Source of the DNA: Octopus sinensis | Lineage: Eukaryota | Length of the DNA: 64,000 nt | Direction of reading: 5' to 3' | Assembly (NCBI RefSeq): GCF_006345805.1 | Contig: NC_043005.1 | Coordinates: 51,646,001-51,710,000, forward strand | Part shown: in pieces, positions 6,751 to 63,729 of the stretch | Layout: every line of letters starts with the position of its first letter | How positions within the stretch are numbered: position 1 is the first letter of the stretch | Translations under genes and position numbers: made by a program | Notes under the pieces: generated by a model | What the model saw: only the letters and a program-made list of their open reading frames with translations | Database searches by the model: none | Told to the model about the DNA's origin: nothing

Positions 6751-7288
6751 TTTTCTACTCTCGGCACAAGGTCCAAAGTTTTTGGGGAGTGGGCCAGTCG
6801 ATTAGATCGACCCCAGTACGCAACTGGTACTTAATTTATCGACCCCGAGAGGATGAAAAGCAAAGTCGACCTCGGCGGAATTTGAACTCAGAACATAAAG
6901 ACAGACGAAATACCTATTTCTTTACTACCCACAAGGGGCTAAACACAGAGGAGACAAACAAGGACAGACAAACGGATTAAGTCGATTGCATCAATCCCAG
7001 TGCGTAACTGGTTCTTGACCCCGAAAGGATGAAAGGCAAAGTCGACATCGGCGGAATTTGAACTCAGAACGTAACGGCAGACGAAATACCTATTTCTTTA
7101 CTACCCACATGGGGCTAAACACAGAGGAGACAAACAAGGACAGACAAACGGATTAAGTCGATTACATCAACCCCAGTGCATAACTGGTTCTTAATTTATC
7201 GACCCCGAAAGGATGAAAGGCAAAGTCGACCTCGGCGGAATTTGAACTCAGAACGTAACGGCAGACGAAATACCGCTAAGTATTTCGC
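6750..7288 (-). mobile_element. SINE family B (Nin/Deu-like domain) with ~180 bp internal tandem duplications
   Basis: Three repeats of gaccccga(a)aggatgaaaggcaaagtcgac...ggcggaatttgaactcagaac; gcctttcatcctttcggggtcgataaa resembles the Nin/Deu SINE domain. Confidence 0.8.
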
Positions 7289-12754: not shown

Positions 12755-13150
12755 TTTACTATTTATCTTATATTAAACTTTTAATACATTTTGATAGTTA
12801 TATAATTTACAAAAAAATAATAATAAATGAATAAATAAATAAATAAATAAATAGAATAAAATAACAAAATAATTAAATAATAATAATAATAATATATATA
12901 TATGTATATTTAAAATTTATAAGTTTAAATTATTTAAATAATTTTTAAAATTTTAACTTTAATTTAAATATTTTAATTTGGAATTTTATATTTTATATTT
13001 TTTATATTTATATTTTATATTTTTTAATTAATTTTTTTCTATGTATTGGCTTATGATTTTCACTGTTTGATTTGCCTTATAGTGGTTTTATCTCTAATTT
13101 AATATAATATATATATATATATATATATGTGTTGTGTGTGTGTGTGTGTA

Positions 13151-13289
13151 GTGCAGGAGTAACTGCGTGGTAAGTAGCTTGCTTACTAACCACATGGCTC
13201 CAGGTTCAGTCCCACAGCATGGCAAGTGTCTTTACTATAGCCTCGAGCCGACCAAAGCATTGGCTGACGGAAACTGAAAGAAGTCCGTC

Positions 13290-13292
<3 letters not shown>
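13151..13292 (+). mobile_element. 5' half of SINE family A; its (TA)n tract abuts the tandem array
   Basis: gtgcaggagtaactgcgtggtaagtagcttgcttac...gacggaaactgaaagaagtccgtcgta. Confidence 0.8.
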
Positions 13293-13329
<37 letters not shown>

Positions 13330-13336
<7 letters not shown>

Positions 13337-16300
13337 TAATATATGGCCGGTGCTAGAAACACCAGCGAAAATAATTAATTTTATTTTATCGCATTTTGAA
13401 TTTGTTTACATATTTCTCGATAAATTTTGAGCGTTAGACTATATACCAGAAATCCCTATTTTGTCGGGTTCGTTCTGCGTCTGCGCAGTGATCTGATTAG
13501 TTAGAAAGAGCAAATTATTAGACGCACATGTGTCTATCGAGTTGCCCTTCATAATAACAAGAATCTTACCGAAGAGCCTACCTGAGTAAATAAATATTAT
13601 ATTTTTTTGCTGAACAAGGCGAACTGCAGTCTAAGATGAACAGAGTTAGTAAAAGTTTTTATCTTCATTTCACTAAATTTATCAAGCTTCTGTGTTTCTA
13701 GTACGTACTTCGCCTTTAATCTACTTATATATGAATAATATATAGCCGGTGCTAGAAACACCAGCGAAAATAATTAATTTTATTTTATCGCATTTTGAAT
13801 TTGTTTACATATTTCTCGATAATTTTGAGCGTTAGACTATATACCAGAAATCCCTATTTTGTCGGGTTCGTTCTGCGTCTGCGCAGTGATCTGATTAGTT
13901 AGAAAGAGCAAATTATTAGACGCACATGTGTCTATCGAGTTGCCCTTCATAATAACAGGAATCTTACCGAAGAGCCTACCTGAGCAAATAAATATATTTT
14001 TTTGCTGAACAAGGCGAAACTGCAGTCTAAGATGAACAGAGTTAGTAAAAGTTTTTATCTTCATTTCACTAATTTATCAAGCTTCTGTGTTTCTAGTACG
14101 TACTTCGCCTTTAATCTACTTATATATGAATAATATATAGCCGGTGCTAGAAACACCAGCGAAAATAATTAATTTTATTTTATCGCATTTTGAATTTGTT
14201 TACATATTCTCGATAAATTTTGAGCGTTAGACTATATACCAGAAATCCCTATTTTGTCGGGTTCGTTCTGCGTCTGCGCAGTGATCTGATTAGTTAGAAA
14301 GAGCAAATTATTAGACGCACATGTGTCTATCGAGTTGCCCTTCATAATAACAGGAATCTTACCGAAGAGCCTACCTGAGCAAATAAATATTATATTTTTT
14401 TGCTGAACAAGGCGAAACTGCAGTCTAAGATGAACAGAGTTAGTAAAAGTTTTTATCTTCACTTCACTAAATTTATCAAGCTTCTGTGTTTCTAGTACGT
14501 ACTTCGCCTTTAATCTACTTATATATGAATAATATATAGCCGGTGCTAGAACACCAGCGAAAATAATTATTTTATTTTATCGCATTTTGAATTTGTTTAC
14601 ATATTTCTCGATAAATTTTGAGCGTTAGACTATATACCAGAAATCCCTATTTTGTCGGGTTCGTTCTGCGTCTGCGCAGTGATCTGATTAGTTAGAAAGA
14701 GCAAATTATTAGACGCACATGTGTCTATCGAGTTGCCCTTCATAATAACAGGAATCTTACCGAAGAGCCTACCTGAGTAAATAAATATTATATTTTTTTG
14801 CTGAACAGGCGAAACTGCAGTCTAAGATGAACAGAGTTAGTAAAAGTTTTTATCTTCATTTCACTAAATTTATCAAGCTTCTGTGTTTCTAGTACGTACT
14901 TCGCCTTTAATCTACTTATATATGAATAATATATGGCCGGTGCTAGAAACACCAGCGAAAATAATTAATTTTATTTTATCGCATTTTGAATTGTTTACAT
15001 ATTTCTCGATAAATTTTGAGCGTTAGACTATATACCAGAAATCCCTATTTTGTCGGGTTCGTTCTGCGTCTGCGCAGTGATCTGATTAGTTAGAAAGAGC
15101 AAATTATTAGACGCACATGTGTCTATCGAGTTGCCCTTCATAATAACAGGAATCTTACCGAAGAGCCTACCTGAGCAAATAAATATTATATTTTTTTGCT
15201 GAACAAGGCGAAACTGCAGTCTAAGATGAACAGAGTTAGTAAAAGTTTTTATCTTCACTTCACTAAATTTATCAGCTTCTGTGTTTCTAGTACGTACTTC
15301 GCCTTTAATCTACTATATATGAATAATATATAGCCGGTGCTAGAAACACCAGCGAAAATAATTAATTTTATTTTATCGCATTTTGAATTGTTTACATATT
15401 TCTCGATAAATTTTGAGCGTTAGACTATATACCAGAAATCCCTATTTTGTCGGGTTCGTTCTGCGTCTGCGCAGTGATCTGATTAGTTAGAAAGAGCAAA
15501 TTATTAGACGCACATGTGTCTATCGAGTTGCCCTTCATAATACAGGAATCTTACCGAAGAGCCTACCTGAGTAAATAAATATTATATTTTTTTGCTGAAC
15601 AAGGCGAAACTGCAGTCTAAGATGAACAGAGTTAGTAAAAGTTTTTATCTTCATTTCACTAAATTTATCAAGCTTCTGTGTTTCTAGTACGTACTTCGCC
15701 TTTAATCTACTTATATATGAATAATATATGGCCGGTGCTAGAAACACCAGCGAAAATAATTAATTTTATTTTATCGCATTTTGAATTTGTTTACATATTT
15801 CTCGATAAATTTTGAGCGTTAGACTATATACCAGAAATCCCTATTTTGTCGGGTTCGTTCTGCGTCTGCGCAGTGATCTGATTAGTTAGAAAGAGCAAAT
15901 TATTAGACGCACATGTGTCTATCGAGTTGCCCTTCATAATAACAGGAATCTTACCGAAGAGCCTACCTGAGCAAATAAATATATTTTTTTGCTGAACAAG
16001 GCGAAACTGCAGTCTAAGATGAACAGAGTTAGTAAAAGTTTTTATCTTCATTTCACTAAATTTATCAAGCTTCTGTGTTTCTAGTACGTACTTCGCCTTT
16101 AATCTACTTATATATGAATAATATATAGCCGGTGCTAGAAACACCAGCGAAAATAATTAATTTTATTTTATCGCATTTTGAATTTGTTTACATATTTCTC
16201 GATAAATTTTGAGCGTTAGACTATATACCAGAAATCCCTATTTTGTCGGGTTCGTTCTGCGTCTGCGCAGTGATCTGATTAGTTAGAAAGAGCAAATTAT

Positions 16301-19300
16301 TAGACGCACATGTGTCTATCGAGTTGCCCTTCATAATAACAGGAATCTTACCGAAGAGCCTACCTGAGCAAATAAATATATTTTTTTGCTGAACAAGGCG
16401 AAACTGCAGTCTAAGATGAACAGAGTTAGTAAAAGTTTTTATCTTCATTTCACTAAATTTATCAAGCTTCTGTGTTTCTAGTACGTACTTCGCCTTTAAT
16501 CTACTTATATATGAATAATATATGGCCGGTGCTAGAAACACCAGCGAAAATAATTAATTTTATTTTATCGCATTTTGAATTTGTTTACATATTTCTCGAT
16601 AAATTTTGAGCGTTAGACTATATACCAGAAATCCCTATTTTGTCGGGTTCGTTCTGCGTCTGCGCAGTGATCTGATTAGTTAGAAAGAGCAAATTATTAG
16701 ACGCACATGTGTCTATCGAGTTGCCCTTCATAATAACAGGAATCTTACGGAAGAGCCTACCTGAGCAAATAAATATTATATTTTTTTGCTGAACAAGGCG
16801 AAACTGCAGTCTAAGATGAACAGAGTTAGTAAAAGTTTTTATCTTCACTTCACTAAATTTATCAAGCTTCTGTGTTTCTAGTACGTACTTCGCCTTTAAT
16901 CTACTTATATATGAATAATATATAGCCGGTGCTAGAAACACCAGCGAAAATAATTAATTTTATTTTATCGCATTTTGAATTGTTTACATATTTCTCGATA
17001 AATTTTGAGCGTTAGACTATATACCAGAAATCCCTATTTTGTCGGGTTCGTTCTGCGTCTGCGCAGTGATCTGATTAGTTAGAAAGAGCAAATTATTAGA
17101 CGCACATGTGTCTATCGAGTTGCCCTTCATAATAACAGGAATCTTACCGAAGAGCCTACCTGAGTAAATAAATATTATATTTTTTTGCTGAACAAGGCGA
17201 AACTGCAGTCTAAGATGAACAGAGTTAGTAAAAGTTTTTATCTTCATTTCACTAAATTTATCAAGCTTCTGTGTTTCTAGTACGTACTTCGCCTTTAATC
17301 TACTTATATATGAATAATATATGGCCGGTGCTAGAAACACCAGCGAAAATAATTAATTTTATTTTATCGCATTTTGAATTTGTTACATATTTCTCGATAA
17401 ATTTTGAGCGTTAGACTATATACCAGAAATCCCTATTTTGTCGGGTTCGTTCTGCGTCTGCGCAGTGATCTGATTAGTTAGAAAGAGCAAATTATTAGAC
17501 GCACATGTGTCTATCGAGTTGCCCTTCATAATAACAGGAATCTTACCGAAGAGCCTACCTGAGCAAATAAATATATTTTTTTGCTGAACAAGGCGAAACT
17601 GCAGTCTAAGATGAACAGAGTTAGTAAAAGTTTTTATCTTCATTTCACTAAATTTATCAAGCTTCTGTGTTTCTAGTACGTACTTCGCCTTTAATCTACT
17701 TATATATGAATAATATATGGCCGGTGCTAGAAACACCAGCGAAAATAATTAATTTTATTTTATCGCATTTTGAATTTGTTTACATATTTCTCGATAAATT
17801 TTGAGCGTTAGACTATATACCAGAAATCCCTATTTTGTCGGGTTCGTTCTGCGTCTGCGCAGTGATCTGATTAGTTAGAAAGAGCAAATTATTAGACGCA
17901 CATGTGTCTATCGAGTTGCCCTTCATAATAACAGGAATCTTACCGAAGAGCCTACCTGAGCAAATAAATATATTTTTTTGCTGAACAAGGCGAAACTGCA
18001 GTCTAAGATGAACAGAGTTAGTAAAAGTTTTTATCTTCATTTCACTAAATTTATCAAGCTTCTGTGTTTCTAGTACGTACTTCGCCTTTAATCTACTTAT
18101 ATATGAATAATATATAGCCGGTGCTAGAAACACCAGCGAAAATAATTAATTTTATTTTATCGCATTTTGAATTTGTTTACATATTTCTCGATAAATTTTG
18201 AGCGTTAGACTATATACCAGAAATCCCTATTTTGTCGGGTTCGTTCTGCGTCTGCGCAGTGATCTGATTAGTTAGAAAGAGCAAATTATTAGACGCACAT
18301 GTGTCTATCGAGTTGCCCTTCATAATAACAGGAATCTTACCGAAGAGCCTACCTGAGTAAATAAATATTATATTTTTTTGCTGAACAAGGCGAACTGCAG
18401 TCTAAGATGAACAGAGTTAGTAAAAGTTCTTATCTTCATTTCACTAAATTTATCAAGCTTCTGTGTTTCTAGTACGTACTTCGCCTTTAATCTACTTATA
18501 TATGAATAATATATAGCCGGTGCTAGAAACACCAGCGAAAATAATTAATTTTATTTTATCGCATTTTGAATTTGTTACATATTTCTCGATAAATTTTGAG
18601 CGTTAGACTATATACCAGAATCCCTATTTTGTCGGGTTCGTTCTGCGTCTGCGCAGTGATCTGATTAGTTAGAAAGAGCAAATTATTAGACGCACATGTG
18701 TCTATCGAGTTGCCCTTCATAATAACAGGAATCTTACCGAAGAGCCTACCTGAGCAAATAAATATTATATTTTTTTGCTGAACAAGGCGAAACTGCAGTC
18801 TAAGATGAACAGAGTTAGTAAAAGTTTTTATCTTCACTTCACTAAATTTATCAAGCTTCTGTGTTTCTAGTACGTACTTCGCCTTTAATCTACTTATATA
18901 TGAATAATATATAGCCGGTGCTAGAAACACCAGCGAAAATAATTAATTTTATTTTATCGCATTTTGAATTTGTTTACATATTTCTCGATAAATTTTGAGC
19001 GTTAGACTATATACCAGAAATCCCTATTTTGTCGGGTTCGTTCTGCGTCTGCGCAGTGATCTGATTAGTTAGAAAGAGCAAATTATTAGACGCACATGTG
19101 TCTATCGAGTTGCCCTTCATAATAACAGGAATCTTACCGAAGAGCCTACCTGAGTAAATAAATATTATATTTTTTTGCTGAACAAGGCGAAACTGCAGTC
19201 TAAGATGAACAGAGTTAGTAAAAGTTTTTATCTTCATTTCACTAATTTATCAAGCTTCTGTGTTTCTAGTACGTACTTCGCCTTTAATCTACTTATATAT

Positions 19301-20964
19301 GAATAATATATAGCCGGTGCTAGAACACCAGCGAAAATAATTAATTTTATTTTATCGCATTTTGAATTTGTTTACATATTTCTCGATAAACTTTGAGCGT
19401 TAGACTATATACCAGAAATCCCTATTTTGTCGGGTTCGTTCTGCGTCTGCGCAGTGATCTGATTAGTTAGAAAGAGCAAATTATTAGACGGACATGTGTC
19501 TATCGAGTTGCCCTTCATAATAACAGGAATCTTACCGAAGAGCCTACCTGAGTAAATAAATATATTTTTTTGCTGAACAAGGCGAAACTGCAGTCTAAGA
19601 TGAACAGAGTTAGTAAAAGTTTTTATCTTCATTTCACTAAATTTATCAAGCTTCTGTGTTTCTAGTACGTACTTCGCCTTTAATCTACTTATATATGAAT
19701 AATATATGGCCGGTGCTAGAAACACCAGCGAAAATAATTAATTTTATTTTATCGCATTTTGAATTTGTTTACATATTTCTCGATAAATTTTGAGCGTTAG
19801 ACTATATACCAGAAATCCCTATTTTGTCGGGTTCGTTCTGCGTCTGCGCAGTGATCTGATTAGTTAGAAAGAGCAAATTATTAGACGCACATGTGTCTAT
19901 CGAGTTGCCCTTCATAATAACAGGAATCTTACCGAAGAGCCTACCTGAGTAAATAAATATTATATTTTTTTGCTGAACAAGGCGAAACTGCAGTCTAAGA
20001 TGAACAGAGTTAGTAAAAGTTTTTATCTTCATTTCACTAAATTTATCAAGCTTCTGTGTTTCTAGTACGTACTTCGCCTTTAATCTACTTATATATGAAT
20101 AATATATAGCCGGTGCTAGAAACACCAGCGAAAATAATTAATTTTATTTTATCGCATTTTGAATTTGTTTACATATTTCTCGATAAACTTTGAGCGTTAG
20201 ACTATATACCAGAAATCCCTATTTTGTCGGGTTCGTTCTGCGTCTGCGCAGTGATCTGATTAGTTAGAAAGAGCAAATTATTAGACGGACATGTGTCTAT
20301 CGAGTTGCCCTTCATAATAACAGGAATCTTACCGAAGAGCCTACCTGAGTAAATAAATATATTTTTTTGCTGAACAAGGCGAAACTGCAGTCTAAGATGA
20401 ACAGAGTTAGTAAAAGTTTTTATCTTCATTTCACTAAATTTATCAAGCTTCTGTGTTTCTAGTACGTACTTCGCCTTTAATCTACTTATATATGAATAAT
20501 ATATGGCCGGTGCTAGAAACACCAGCGAAAATAATTAATTTTATTTTATCGCATTTTGAATTTGTTTACATATTTCTCGATAAATTTTGAGCGTTAGACT
20601 ATATACCAGAAATCCCTATTTTGTCGGGTTCGTTCTGCGTCTGCGCAGTGATCTGATTAGTTAGAAAGAGCAAATTATTAGACGCACATGTGTCTATCGA
20701 GTTGCCCTTCATAATAACAGGAATCTTACCGAAGAGCCTACCTGAGCAAATAAATATATTTTTTTGCTGAACAAGGCGAAACTGCAGTCTAAGATGAACA
20801 GAGTTAGTAAAAGTTTTTATCTTCATTTCACTAAATTTATCAAGCTTCTGTGTTTCTAGTACGTACTTCGCCTTTAATCTACTTATATATGAATAATATA
20901 TGGCCGGTGCTAGAAACACCAGCGAAAATAATTAATTTTATTTTATCGCACTTTGAATTTGTTT
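13330..20964 (+). repeat. Tandem array of 19 x ~398 bp hammerhead-containing units plus partial 20th (retrozyme-like satellite)
   Basis: Marker gccggtgctagaa occurs 20 times at ~396-400 bp spacing (about 13346 to 20903); units nearly identical; flanked by (TA)n on both sides. Confidence 0.97.
13961..14033 (+). ncRNA. Type I hammerhead ribozyme motif (representative copy, unit 2; one per unit, 19 in total)
   Basis: Helix I AUCUUA/UAAGAU (6 bp); core CCGAAGA; helix II GCCU/AGGC extended by AGCAAA..AAAUA/UAUUU..UUUGCU; GAAAC-UGCA-GUC; predicted cleavage after C14027. Confidence 0.85.
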
Positions 20965-21693
20965 ATATATATATATATATGTATACATACATATATATAT
21001 ATATACATAGTTGTTTGTTGTCACTTCAACATGGCTGTTCCATACACAACGATGTCTCTACTATTTTTACCCCAGGAGAACACACGCACGTTCGCGTGAG
21101 GGTACACGGTCTAGTGTTTAGGGTGTTGCAGTCTAGTGGTTACGGTGTTGATTTCGATTCGTAGACATTCAACTCACCTTGCTCTGGGACTACTATATAC
21201 ATCTGTTTAGGCAAAGTCTATTTGATCGAGGGAGTGAGCTAATATGCAACACATACATATGATCATTATAAAGAAATTGTTTGTGCAGGTTGATTGGAAA
21301 ATTTAAAAAACTGCATATTCATATATACAAATATGTGTATGTTCATATACATACGCCTATTGATCAAAATAGCTGGAAGTATCGTTCTGAGTATTGCATT
21401 TTCGAAAACTGAAGTCATGTTTGTAAATATGAAAATCCGGCACAGCGACAGCCCATAAAAGTCAACGAAAGATGGCAGCAGAAACGTGTAATATGAATAA
21501 ATTACCTGTGAATGAAATAATAACTTGTAATAATGAAAAGGTGAAGAATAATGACTAACTTTATCCATATATATTCATATGTATACTCGTATTTGCTCAT
21601 GGAAACCGGAACACCTACATGCACTTTTCTCCTCTCCCGTGCGTAAAACAACGCATTTACACACACACGCACTCACATGTGTAAATCCACACA

Positions 21694-26363: not shown

Positions 26364-26949
26364 TGTATGTTTATGTGTGTGTATGTATGTGTGTATCACT
26401 GTGTCTTTGCCTTGGCGTCGTGTGATAAACTTATGCAAATGACATCGTGCAAGCGGTGTCCAGTCTTCTGTGAATACATGTTTGGTCATGGGGAAATCGC
26501 CAGAAATCGCTTGTTTCTAATAAAGTAGGCGTTAAAAGTGAACGTTAAAAGGATGATTCAAGCAAAAAAATTATTTACAGATATTTACGAGAAACAATGA
26601 TCCTCATTCAGGATGACTTTTAAAAAACGCTCGATTAAAATATCATGCAGCTGGTGCCTGAATATGAAGAACTTTATCACTCGTTAGCATTACCAAGAGA
26701 CCACACCCAATTGTAACTGCTTAGATCCTGAAGCGTGCTCATTTGACCAGTCGTATATGATAAACTCTAGTCTGTATGAAGCAGACGTCACACTAACATT
26801 TCAAGACAACGTAACTGAAAAAAAATTATATCGCTTTATACGATAGCGATTTCAAAAGACCATGCAAACCACCTATTTTCTTTCCGGCATATCGACAAAA
26901 CTAAAGCCACTAAGTTAGTTGGCTAGCCACGTATAGGGTTTTAAGACTA

Positions 26950-27340
26950 ACTTCATACCACGTACGATCAAGCGCCGAATCGTAGAGAAATCCATGCCAC
27001 ATGTAAATAGATCTATGAAATGCGACATATTCTTTTTAGATTTAAGAATTTCACCACACTAATTAATTCCAGATCCGAAATATGCATATGAGCAAATTTA
27101 TTATGGTGAACTGGAAGATACCACTCTCCCTGAATAGAGCAGCTGTCTCGCAGATTTTGGGCTCCCCTCCGTTGAATAATTCTATAACAACTAGTTTAAT
27201 TATAACCTTTATAAACAAAGGGAACGTAACTCCGATTTTCTTTCTTTTTTTTTTCACCCTTCCAATTTTTGCATCTACTTTCTCGTTTTTTTCTAATGAT
27301 TTATCATGTATCAGCCTTCTGATTTTCAAACAGAACAGAC
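26950..27340 (-). pseudogene. Possible highly decayed DNA-transposase relic
   Basis: Fragments KIRRLIHDK...E, KFAHMHISD and EYVAFHRSI loosely recall the QIR.LI.D / KIHFLHSHLD / EHGERFHQDI transposon-derived protein family; weak. Confidence 0.25.
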
Positions 27341-63330: not shown

Positions 63331-63729
63331 TTAGCGATTTGGTTTACATGAATGGCTTAAGGTTTTAAAAAATTTGTGGTTATTCAGAAGTTGTGTGTCT
63401 GATAACAGGATATGGGTTGCCTCCTCGGTGCACACATGGCATGGTCCCCTTCTGCTCGTGTATGGGGTTGCGTGTTTTATCACACTCAAATAGAGCGAGT
63501 TCCTGATGCTTGAGTTTTTCAATTGCCATAACTACTTCGGTAGGGTTGTCGAAAGTGCTACTTTTGAGTTTCTGAATGAATGTAAGCGTGTGTAGTATCG
63601 TTTTTGAAGGAATTGGCCGTGCTCCTTAGCTGTTGTAGAAGTGATAACCTGACACCTGTAGACGATGCTTTTGGCGAGGCAATTTCTATTCAAAGGGCGA
63701 TCCAGCGATTTTCTACAGTTACAAGTTTT
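63331..63729 (-). pseudogene. Penelope-like element (Neptune-type) GIY-YIG endonuclease domain, disrupted
   Basis: KTCNCRKSLDRPLNRNCLAKSIVYRCQV...[YIG lost, frameshift]STANSFKKRYYTRLHSFRN...TTLPK*LWQLK...PYTSRRGPCHVCTEEATHILL...LLN; matches CNCR..CPL.G.C / VY / FK.R / C.LC..E..LN motifs. Confidence 0.85.

Follow-up and report, generated by a model that had tools for sequence, protein, structure and literature searches.

A 64,000-nucleotide (nt) stretch of the Octopus sinensis genome (NC_043005.1, 51,646,001–51,710,000; hereafter the window, within which all positions are counted unless another locus is named) harbors a tandem array at 13327–20970, for which Tandem Repeats Finder gives a period of 397, 19.2 copies and 98% matches. 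An earlier note on this DNA had described a tandem of 19 nearly identical units of ~398 bp within a (TA)n tract, each encoding a hammerhead ribozyme. The layout holds: the 19 units measure 395–400 bp, differ from one another by a mean of 2.1 substitutions, and (TA)n tracts border the array at both ends. Judged from its sequence, the repeat is a non-autonomous, non-coding retrozyme of the type without long terminal repeats (non-LTR retrozyme), and the array represents one insertion of a dispersed, young family.

The array and its hammerheads

Counted from a common anchor, the unit starts run from 13333 to 20493, followed by a 76-bp partial unit at 20890–20965 (Table 1). The 5′ junction of the array is ambiguous by a few bases, because it falls inside the unit's own TATATA. 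The GC content of the units amounts to 0.32–0.35, and many of them carry one-base deletions, mostly inside homopolymer runs. No convincing gene was found among the window frames of at least 110 amino acids. The frames of the array itself, stop-to-stop frames of 110–128 amino acids on the minus strand only, display no gene-like conservation and were taken as chance, no homology search having been made.

The helix I/II/III layout of a type I hammerhead is present in all 19 units, with an extended stem-loop as loop II, and C14027, which the earlier note had proposed as a cut site, is the predicted cut nucleotide of unit 2. The motif that it had ascribed to every unit occurs letter for letter in 16 of the 19; the exceptions are unit 9, with CGGAAGA, and units 1 and 13, where GAAC replaces GAAAC. 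As most one-base deletions of the array sit in homopolymer runs, the A missing from these two may be a long-read residue. A check with the Rfam model Hammerhead_1 (RF00163) likewise succeeds in part, with 15 units at or above the gathering score (36.8–37 bits versus 34, E ~1e-5) and units 1, 4, 9 and 13 below. None of the window cores corresponds to the canonical CUGAnGA ... GAAA ... UH: U4 is replaced by C (U4C) in 18 units and by G (U4G) in one, and two cores additionally lack one A. The core CCGAAGA is present as the earlier note quoted it, yet its departure from CUGAnGA at U4 had gone unremarked.

Table 1. Features of the window array, its flanks and the candidate driver family (+, plus strand;., no strand assigned).
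Feature	Position	Strand	Remarks
Retrozyme insertion	13333..20965	+	19 head-to-tail units of 395–400 bp plus 76-bp partial unit; four linked unit haplotypes (7, 6, 4, 2 copies) form a mosaic
(TA)n target tract 5′ of insertion	13291..13332	.	Tail of upstream dispersed repeat
(TA)n target tract 3′ of insertion, where the family has its fixed junction	20966..21009	.	Unit position 76, GTTTA/TATA (slash, junction)
Predicted hairpin, candidate reverse-transcriptase recognition site	20922..20949	+	Just 5′ of fixed 3′ end; kept in both subfamilies
Upstream dispersed repeat, putatively SINE-like (short interspersed element), outside the element	13141..13290	+	Own (TA)n tail took the insertion; also seen in 58 of the 254 fetched loci and at 9 more places in the window
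Hammerhead unit 1	13563..13637	+	U4C, one A missing from GAAAC; predicted cut after 13631; below Rfam cut-off
Hammerhead unit 2	13961..14033	+	U4C; predicted cut after C14027
Hammerhead unit 3	14356..14431	+	U4C; predicted cut after 14425
Hammerhead unit 4	14754..14828	+	U4C; predicted cut after 14822; below Rfam cut-off
Hammerhead unit 5	15152..15227	+	U4C; predicted cut after 15221
Hammerhead unit 6	15548..15623	+	U4C; predicted cut after 15617
Hammerhead unit 7	15948..16020	+	U4C at 15955; predicted cut after 16014
Hammerhead unit 8	16345..16417	+	U4C; predicted cut after 16411
Hammerhead unit 9	16742..16817	+	Core CGGAAGA (U4G); predicted cut after 16811; below Rfam cut-off
Hammerhead unit 10	17141..17216	+	U4C; predicted cut after 17210
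Hammerhead unit 11	17540..17612	+	U4C; predicted cut after 17606
Hammerhead unit 12	17937..18009	+	U4C; predicted cut after 18003
Hammerhead unit 13	18334..18408	+	U4C, one A missing from GAAAC; predicted cut after 18402; below Rfam cut-off
Hammerhead unit 14	18731..18806	+	U4C; predicted cut after 18800
Hammerhead unit 15	19131..19206	+	U4C; predicted cut after 19200
Hammerhead unit 16	19529..19601	+	U4C; predicted cut after 19595
Hammerhead unit 17	19926..20001	+	U4C; predicted cut after 19995
Hammerhead unit 18	20326..20398	+	U4C; predicted cut after 20392
Hammerhead unit 19	20723..20795	+	U4C; predicted cut after 20789
Hydra-clade family loci	L155–L184, e.g. L157:211–2364 and 2549–2620

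A dispersed family with one fixed 3′ end

Comparison of the window unit with the genome yielded 729 candidates, the best 40 of which were scored. Among the 39 scored loci outside the window, which were chosen by whole-unit likeness, 36 share the same 3′ end (unit position 78–82 by BLAST; in most, the junction follows position 76), which lies on (TA)n in almost all cases, and their 5′ ends vary. The genome-wide search for other loci that the earlier note had suggested was extended to exact 3′ junctions and recovered 271 of these, 106 in subfamily A and 165 in subfamily B, with none in either control. The 404-bp unit of subfamily B is 82.5% identical to that of subfamily A. Most copies of the family comprise fewer than two units and are spread over many contigs. 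A lone satellite is ruled out by this dispersal together with the fixed 3′ end, the truncated 5′ ends and the (TA)n targets. The insertions are plain truncated tandems, in which a layout of LTR, PBS (primer binding site) as well as PPT (polypurine tract) was not seen, PBS and PPT not having been searched as motifs. In 101 junction records, up to 3.5 kb of the sequence upstream contains no autonomous element attached to the 3′ end. The earlier classification as a young, dispersed retrozyme-type family with Penelope-like insertion marks can hence be retained, but the array had been treated as the element, whereas the mobile unit is a 5′-truncated run up to a fixed end ~180 nt past the cut.

For the analysis of the insertion ends, 100 of the 106 subfamily A junctions were listed and 101 records recovered, of which 96 were kept after removal of one duplicate, two records cut by the contig start, one that was mis-chained and one with an internal deletion. 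In subfamily B, the first 76 of the 165 junctions were used, which limits its power as a replicate. Insertion lengths range from 40 to 1363 nt in A and from 28 to more than 2645 nt in B, reflecting 5′ truncation, and 75 of the 96 A insertions have (TA)4 or longer within 25 nt of their 5′ end. No convincing target-site duplication was found among 21 insertions with non-TA 5′ flanks. The cut site is crossed by 64 of the 96 A insertions and 40 are longer than one unit, which requires as template either a circle or a multimer left uncut.

The ribozyme itself was compared across 174 unit records from 107 fetched loci, with some loci counted twice and a search pattern that tolerated three to four substitutions and thus favors conservation. 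Core positions C3, G5, A6, A9, A13 and A15.1 are invariant, and variation is mainly found at N7 (A, U or C) and H17 (A, C or U, never G). Covariation of the helices at other loci, on which the earlier note had made its reading depend, is seen in compensatory exchanges in helix II, where pair 10.2/11.2 is CG in 156 records, UA in 17 and otherwise composed in one, while pair 10.4/11.4 is AU in 80, UA in another 80 and otherwise composed in 14. In an alignment of nine hand-picked sequences, 95% of the cells pair and the covariation score was reached by two of 500 shuffles, which is to be read as support rather than as a probability because the nine rows are related; the sixth pair of helix I fails in four of the nine. 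These patterns argue that the hammerhead is under selection in the family. Helix III consists of merely 2 bp with a palindromic loop, for which +2.9 kcal/mol was calculated as a monomer hairpin and −12.5 kcal/mol as a self-duplex. Such a weak helix III with dimer-type cleavage is a design described in PMC4209133. In thermodynamic folding, helix III was never recovered and helix I was weak in long contexts, with canonical copies behaving alike.

Unit position 277 in the upper helix II stem (e.g. window position 15997) changes repeatedly from C to A or G, in lineages that are unrelated as well as from unit to unit within an insertion. It could be a hot spot of reverse-transcription errors, for example at a modified base.

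A further abundant dispersed repeat lies at window positions 6796–7274 (a 176-bp tandem with 2.4 copies) and matches 53 of the 254 fetched loci; we take this repeat, as well as the one upstream of the array, to be SINE-like. The latter recurs at L061:2668–4247 (oriented), where a subfamily A insertion in (TA)n and a neighboring subfamily B insertion both interrupt or adjoin it. L202:757–2437 (oriented) is a 1.68-kb near-perfect palindrome centered in a subfamily B fragment that ends 9 nt past the cut site, which may be an assembly hairpin artefact or a Penelope-type inversion. An Rfam search of the genome returned seven matches, all to other hammerhead families and none like the unit. A different hammerhead family, with a canonical core, occurs at L153/L154 (G000:C16:25146363–25146839), L148, L151 and L152. 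Two copies at L153, spaced by 431 bp in a tandem of 96% identity, probably represent a second retrozyme family, and L151 lies in long inverted repeats.

The U4C core and the growth of the array

In one sample, 48 of 59 family copies have the canonical core, and U4 is kept in 164 of the 174 unit records. The canonical half-core has 441 matches in the genome versus 41 for a reversed control; the U4C half-core has 29 in the assembly, 18 of them inside the window array. U4C is a derived state in the window array. On the family tree, whose bootstraps are not fully settled, U4C requires three to five changes, and the window units form a clade together with one U4 locus and six further U4C loci (99/94, or 100/98 with longer units). 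A second lineage of four loci (L085, L094, L096 and L102; 100/99) combines U4C with an A10.1-C11.1 mismatch in at least four insertions of 345–777 nt. As both the U4C clade and this double-defect lineage are multi-locus, damaged cores still spread. L005 (G000:C3:138466779–138467510) has U at position 4, yet shares 99% identity with the window units, among which the tree places it; it is possibly a daughter of the window array or a reversion. Both C and T at this position were seen in contigs of one public DNA run, which may stem from the assembly's own sample. The family is also found in DNA or unlabelled runs of two other organisms (shares of up to 0.47 and 0.26), and one run of the first has canonical U4 only, in a single contig. 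The U4C share is higher in one DNA run, which was given no weight because summed contig depth does not measure copy number. No run recorded as RNA contained the family; two runs that may be RNA yielded 4 and 19 contigs at depths below 40, which speaks neither for nor against expression.

According to PMC3088659, U4C "considerably decreases activity in vitro", yet a viroid carrying it stays infectious. Because all 19 cores are devoid of U4, efficient monomer release from the window array is doubtful; release is likely slow, and the array probably carries the least active version of the family's ribozyme. The earlier proposal that its transcripts are cut into ~398-nt monomers or circles is unsupported as it was put, given that most family copies are canonical and none of these 19 is.

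The window array is also exceptional in length. The longest other arrays have 3.4 units in subfamily A and at least 6.5 in subfamily B. Its four linked haplotypes are interleaved in repeated blocks, including an exact two-unit duplication. Due to this mosaic, a single rolling-circle pass around a monomer circle is ruled out as the source of the 19-mer, and local duplication after insertion would be the simplest reading. Alternatively, the slowed U4C ribozymes could have left a very long transcript or circle intact that was reverse-transcribed in one event of 7.6 kb. The exact family 3′ junction and the TA-joined 5′ end are indeed kept, the longest array found is a U4C one, and arrays of at least 6.5 units exist in B. 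Yet the haplotypes are incompatible with one monomer circle, and had the template been linear, its source array must have been just as long, while 18 of the 29 U4C matches in the assembly are the window array itself, and other insertions of the U4C clade are shorter than two units. A one-event origin is thus quite improbable.

A candidate driver and the copying cycle

A fragment beside one insertion led to an abundant Penelope family (30,109 candidates, the best 123 of which were scored, with 86–100% protein identity). Its open frame of 717 amino acids contains RWK, DKT, CxCX5C, CxxC and CxH, which are marks of the Hydra clade, whose elements insert into (TA)n (PMC8557442), and, by eye and without tool alignment, the frame is a close homologue of the Octopus element Hydra-1_Obim in the supplement of that article. 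Pfam and PDB sequence searches of the frame gave no match; an Atlas search placed it with reverse transcriptase/GIY-YIG clusters at 0.96–0.99. A hammerhead motif at the 3′ end of the family occurs in 2641 exact copies and itself reads CCGAAGA, i.e. U4C, in 37 of 39 motifs; it has an extra U before GAAA, and part of its own loop II is complementary to the 5′ strand of its core. Rfam returned no match to this motif, so that its assignment as a hammerhead follows from its layout and the annotation of Hydra-1_oBim, the Octopus relative in print, whose core is canonical (PMC8557442). Hydra family and retrozyme both end on (TA)n at fixed sites, but head-to-head inversions were seen among the Hydra loci only. 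Direct descent of the unit from the pseudo-LTR (pLTR) of the Hydra family is ruled out, the only matches to 30 Hydra loci being low-complexity stretches of 15–28 nt. Other Penelope families are present in the genome, with fragments at L069 and L096. As a tentative assignment that is nearly as likely as not, this young Hydra-clade family is the best candidate for the driver of the retrozyme. The window also contains two old fragments of Penelope GIY-YIG endonucleases at 26604–27029 (plus strand) and 63421–63726 (minus strand), which are 26% identical to the Hydra frame.

Known systems provide the frame for a possible mode of copying. The octopus repeat shows the hallmarks of non-LTR retrozymes, i.e. 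units of ~150–450 bp, a GC content below 50%, a hammerhead in each unit, no coding capacity, dispersal and Penelope elements in the genome, and on sequence evidence appears to be a further member of this group. As described for animals, notably Mytilus galloprovincialis, by Cervera and de la Pena 2020 (PMC7229834), such retrozymes, which include mussel units of 350–390 bp and coral arrays of up to 62-mers, are low-GC, non-coding tandems of dimers to tens of units with one type I hammerhead per unit and a short palindromic helix III, without LTR, PBS and PPT, in a genome that also contains Penelope; their route via circles and Penelope is a proposal. The octopus family differs from them by its ~35-nt stem-loop II and the U4C state of the window copies, as well as by the fixed 3′ end and (TA)n targeting, of which no description was found for the others in the accessible text. 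Newt satellite 2, axolotl HHR_Amex1-2 and Schistosoma Sm-alpha share a weak palindromic helix III that favors dimeric cleavage, with monomer and multimer RNAs to be expected (PMC7229834, PMC4209133). This likeness is one by description, and the axolotl has ~126,000 copies versus ~400 canonical cores in the octopus family. 

Both non-autonomous Penelope-like elements and retrozymes derived from pLTRs (Craig et al. 2021, PMC8557442; 10.64898/2026.07.22.740005) resemble the family in 5′ truncation, partial tandems, microsatellite targets, the lack of detectable target-site duplications and a fixed internal start of reverse transcription as in PMC11167929. In contrast to these, the octopus retrozyme has no DNA homology to the pLTR/3′ end of the one family compared, no 5′ inversions (0/173) and no 30–40-nt tail. 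Hydra-1_Obim and other Hydra-clade elements (PMC8557442) share the (TA)n target, the fixed end and a hammerhead shortly before the 3′ end, but are autonomous (reverse transcriptase plus GIY-YIG), whereas the octopus retrozyme codes for nothing and has no detectable descent from them. In Xenopus, retrozymes are tied to Penelope pLTRs, and one of nine dimers was cleaved (Li, Clavereau and Pollet 2026, 10.64898/2026.07.22.740005, which as far as available covers no mollusc). The words 'octopus' and 'cephalopod' are absent from the main text of PMC7229834, and no cephalopod retrozyme was found in the literature searched, with Repbase, Dfam and most subscription papers outside the search; the family may already be catalogued.

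The retrozyme is probably propagated by Penelope-type target-primed copying of a hammerhead-cut, partly circular RNA from a fixed internal start into (TA)n. Tandem copies would be transcribed, and their type I hammerheads, with the 2-bp palindromic helix III favoring dimer cleavage, would cleave a portion of the RNA to give multimers and fragments of unit length, of which some may be ligated into circles. A Penelope-like reverse transcriptase/GIY-YIG endonuclease, putatively of the Hydra family, would act in trans and nick (TA)n DNA. Copying would then begin at one internal site (unit position 76–81, ~180 nt past the cut), run around or along the template and halt at a variable point, which affords 5′-truncated head-to-tail insertions with one fixed 3′ end. 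The window locus would be an insertion of this kind, from the derived U4C sublineage, and local duplication would later have extended it to 19 units. Its position ~180 nt past the cut indicates that the 3′ end is not made by the ribozyme and would fit internal initiation by a Penelope enzyme; the anole Penelope reverse transcriptase starts internally, nicks AT-rich DNA and does so in vitro with hammerhead cleavage being dispensable (PMC11167929).

Alleles and 5′ ends of the insertions carry further traces of this process. Nine alleles in A and 11 in B occur in at most one other locus and are fixed in all overlapping units (up to six) of one insertion, as a circular template would predict, although homogenised source arrays or later gene conversion could lead to the same pattern. 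Only two of 45 within-insertion differences in B are alleles shared with other loci. Moreover, 5′ ends in A are concentrated within 50 nt directly 3′ of the cut (23 versus 4 upstream, p = 7e-4), and the best step among 399 positions is located at 297–298, with the cut at 299. A post-hoc test in B against the whole unit gave 13/46 (p = 0.013), and a pooled Poisson term amounts to +0.79 ± 0.26 (~2.2-fold) after TA and AT covariates.

Several observations weigh against the copying of circles and against the proposed driver. The pre-stated replicate of the 5′-end step in B was in the same direction without reaching significance (14 versus 8, p = 0.22), the same step would result if the reverse transcriptase stalled at the fold of the ribozyme, and two of the four loci of the double-defect lineage also end in the 50 nt just past the cut. 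Of the 70 within-insertion differences in A, 16 are alleles that other loci have too, six of them at unit position 277, which one circle would not give. Circle folding is only weakly better than that of shuffles (z of −2.1 for the plus and −1.5 for the minus strand). A second Penelope-type start ('tail') was not found: a single copy ends at unit position 131, and a pattern search had no match. As for the Hydra family, 20 of 78 loci on the first contig form head-to-head inversions versus none of 173 retrozyme 5′ flanks, and no DNA is shared between the unit and 30 Hydra loci beyond low-complexity 15–28-mers.

Some of these points would also suit movement via linear read-through multimers, with the hammerhead as a passenger, no circles, and tandems arising from tandem sources and unequal crossing-over. 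Besides the alleles shared with other loci inside A insertions, the spread of damaged-core lineages speaks for such a process (eight loci in the U4C clade, four with the additional mismatch), as do the U4C motifs of the Hydra family itself, the dispensability of cleavage for the anole enzyme in vitro (PMC11167929) and the eight of nine Xenopus dimers that remained uncleaved (10.64898/2026.07.22.740005). We nevertheless regard it as unlikely, since selection on an active fold is implied by the compensatory changes in helix II and by variation that is largely restricted to N7 and H17, private alleles in both copies of insertions of 1.2–1.7 units are hard to obtain without copying one molecule twice, and the 5′ ends in A step at the cut. 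That the array is merely a DNA-level satellite or an assembly artefact with the hammerhead as a relic devoid of a role is hardly credible. While the single-base homopolymer deletions in many units resemble long-read residue, copies dispersed by the hundreds, which share a fixed 3′ end, are truncated 5′ and target (TA)n, are at odds with it, as are the helix II covariation and the occurrence of both C and T at U4 in the public DNA-run contigs, and the linked haplotypes disfavor a collapsed or duplicated read.

Target-primed copying of a partly circular RNA, as preferred above, may be taken further. The insertions would then record the retrozyme cycle itself, i.e. rolling-circle copying of a ribozyme-made circle from one internal start by a Hydra-clade enzyme that reads a hairpin rather than shared sequence. 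The excess of 5′ ends at the cut would reflect cleavage in vivo, and U4C, which arose at least three times in the repeat and is fixed in the driver, would be tolerated or even favored as it keeps templates intact. In this full form the scenario is doubtful, albeit conceivable. If true, it would provide the first named pair of driver and retrozyme not linked by sequence homology, along with genomic support for a step so far only proposed in the literature as available.

Taken by itself, the window array belongs to ordinary biology, being a long copy of an element whose kind is known. Its family, however, is a good natural system for how animal retrozymes get copied, with unusually clear traces of copying in the ends and alleles of its copies. 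In the literature as available, the movement of animal retrozymes is still a proposal, in which circles are copied by Penelope enzymes, with neither priming site nor enzyme shown. As the family is young and offers at least 271 mapped junctions, one start site, a defined target, copies longer than a unit and a candidate enzyme whose frame is intact, the existing in vitro assay of Penelope priming can test this proposal directly. The natural U4C series additionally provides a built-in test of whether the rate of cleavage matters for spread.

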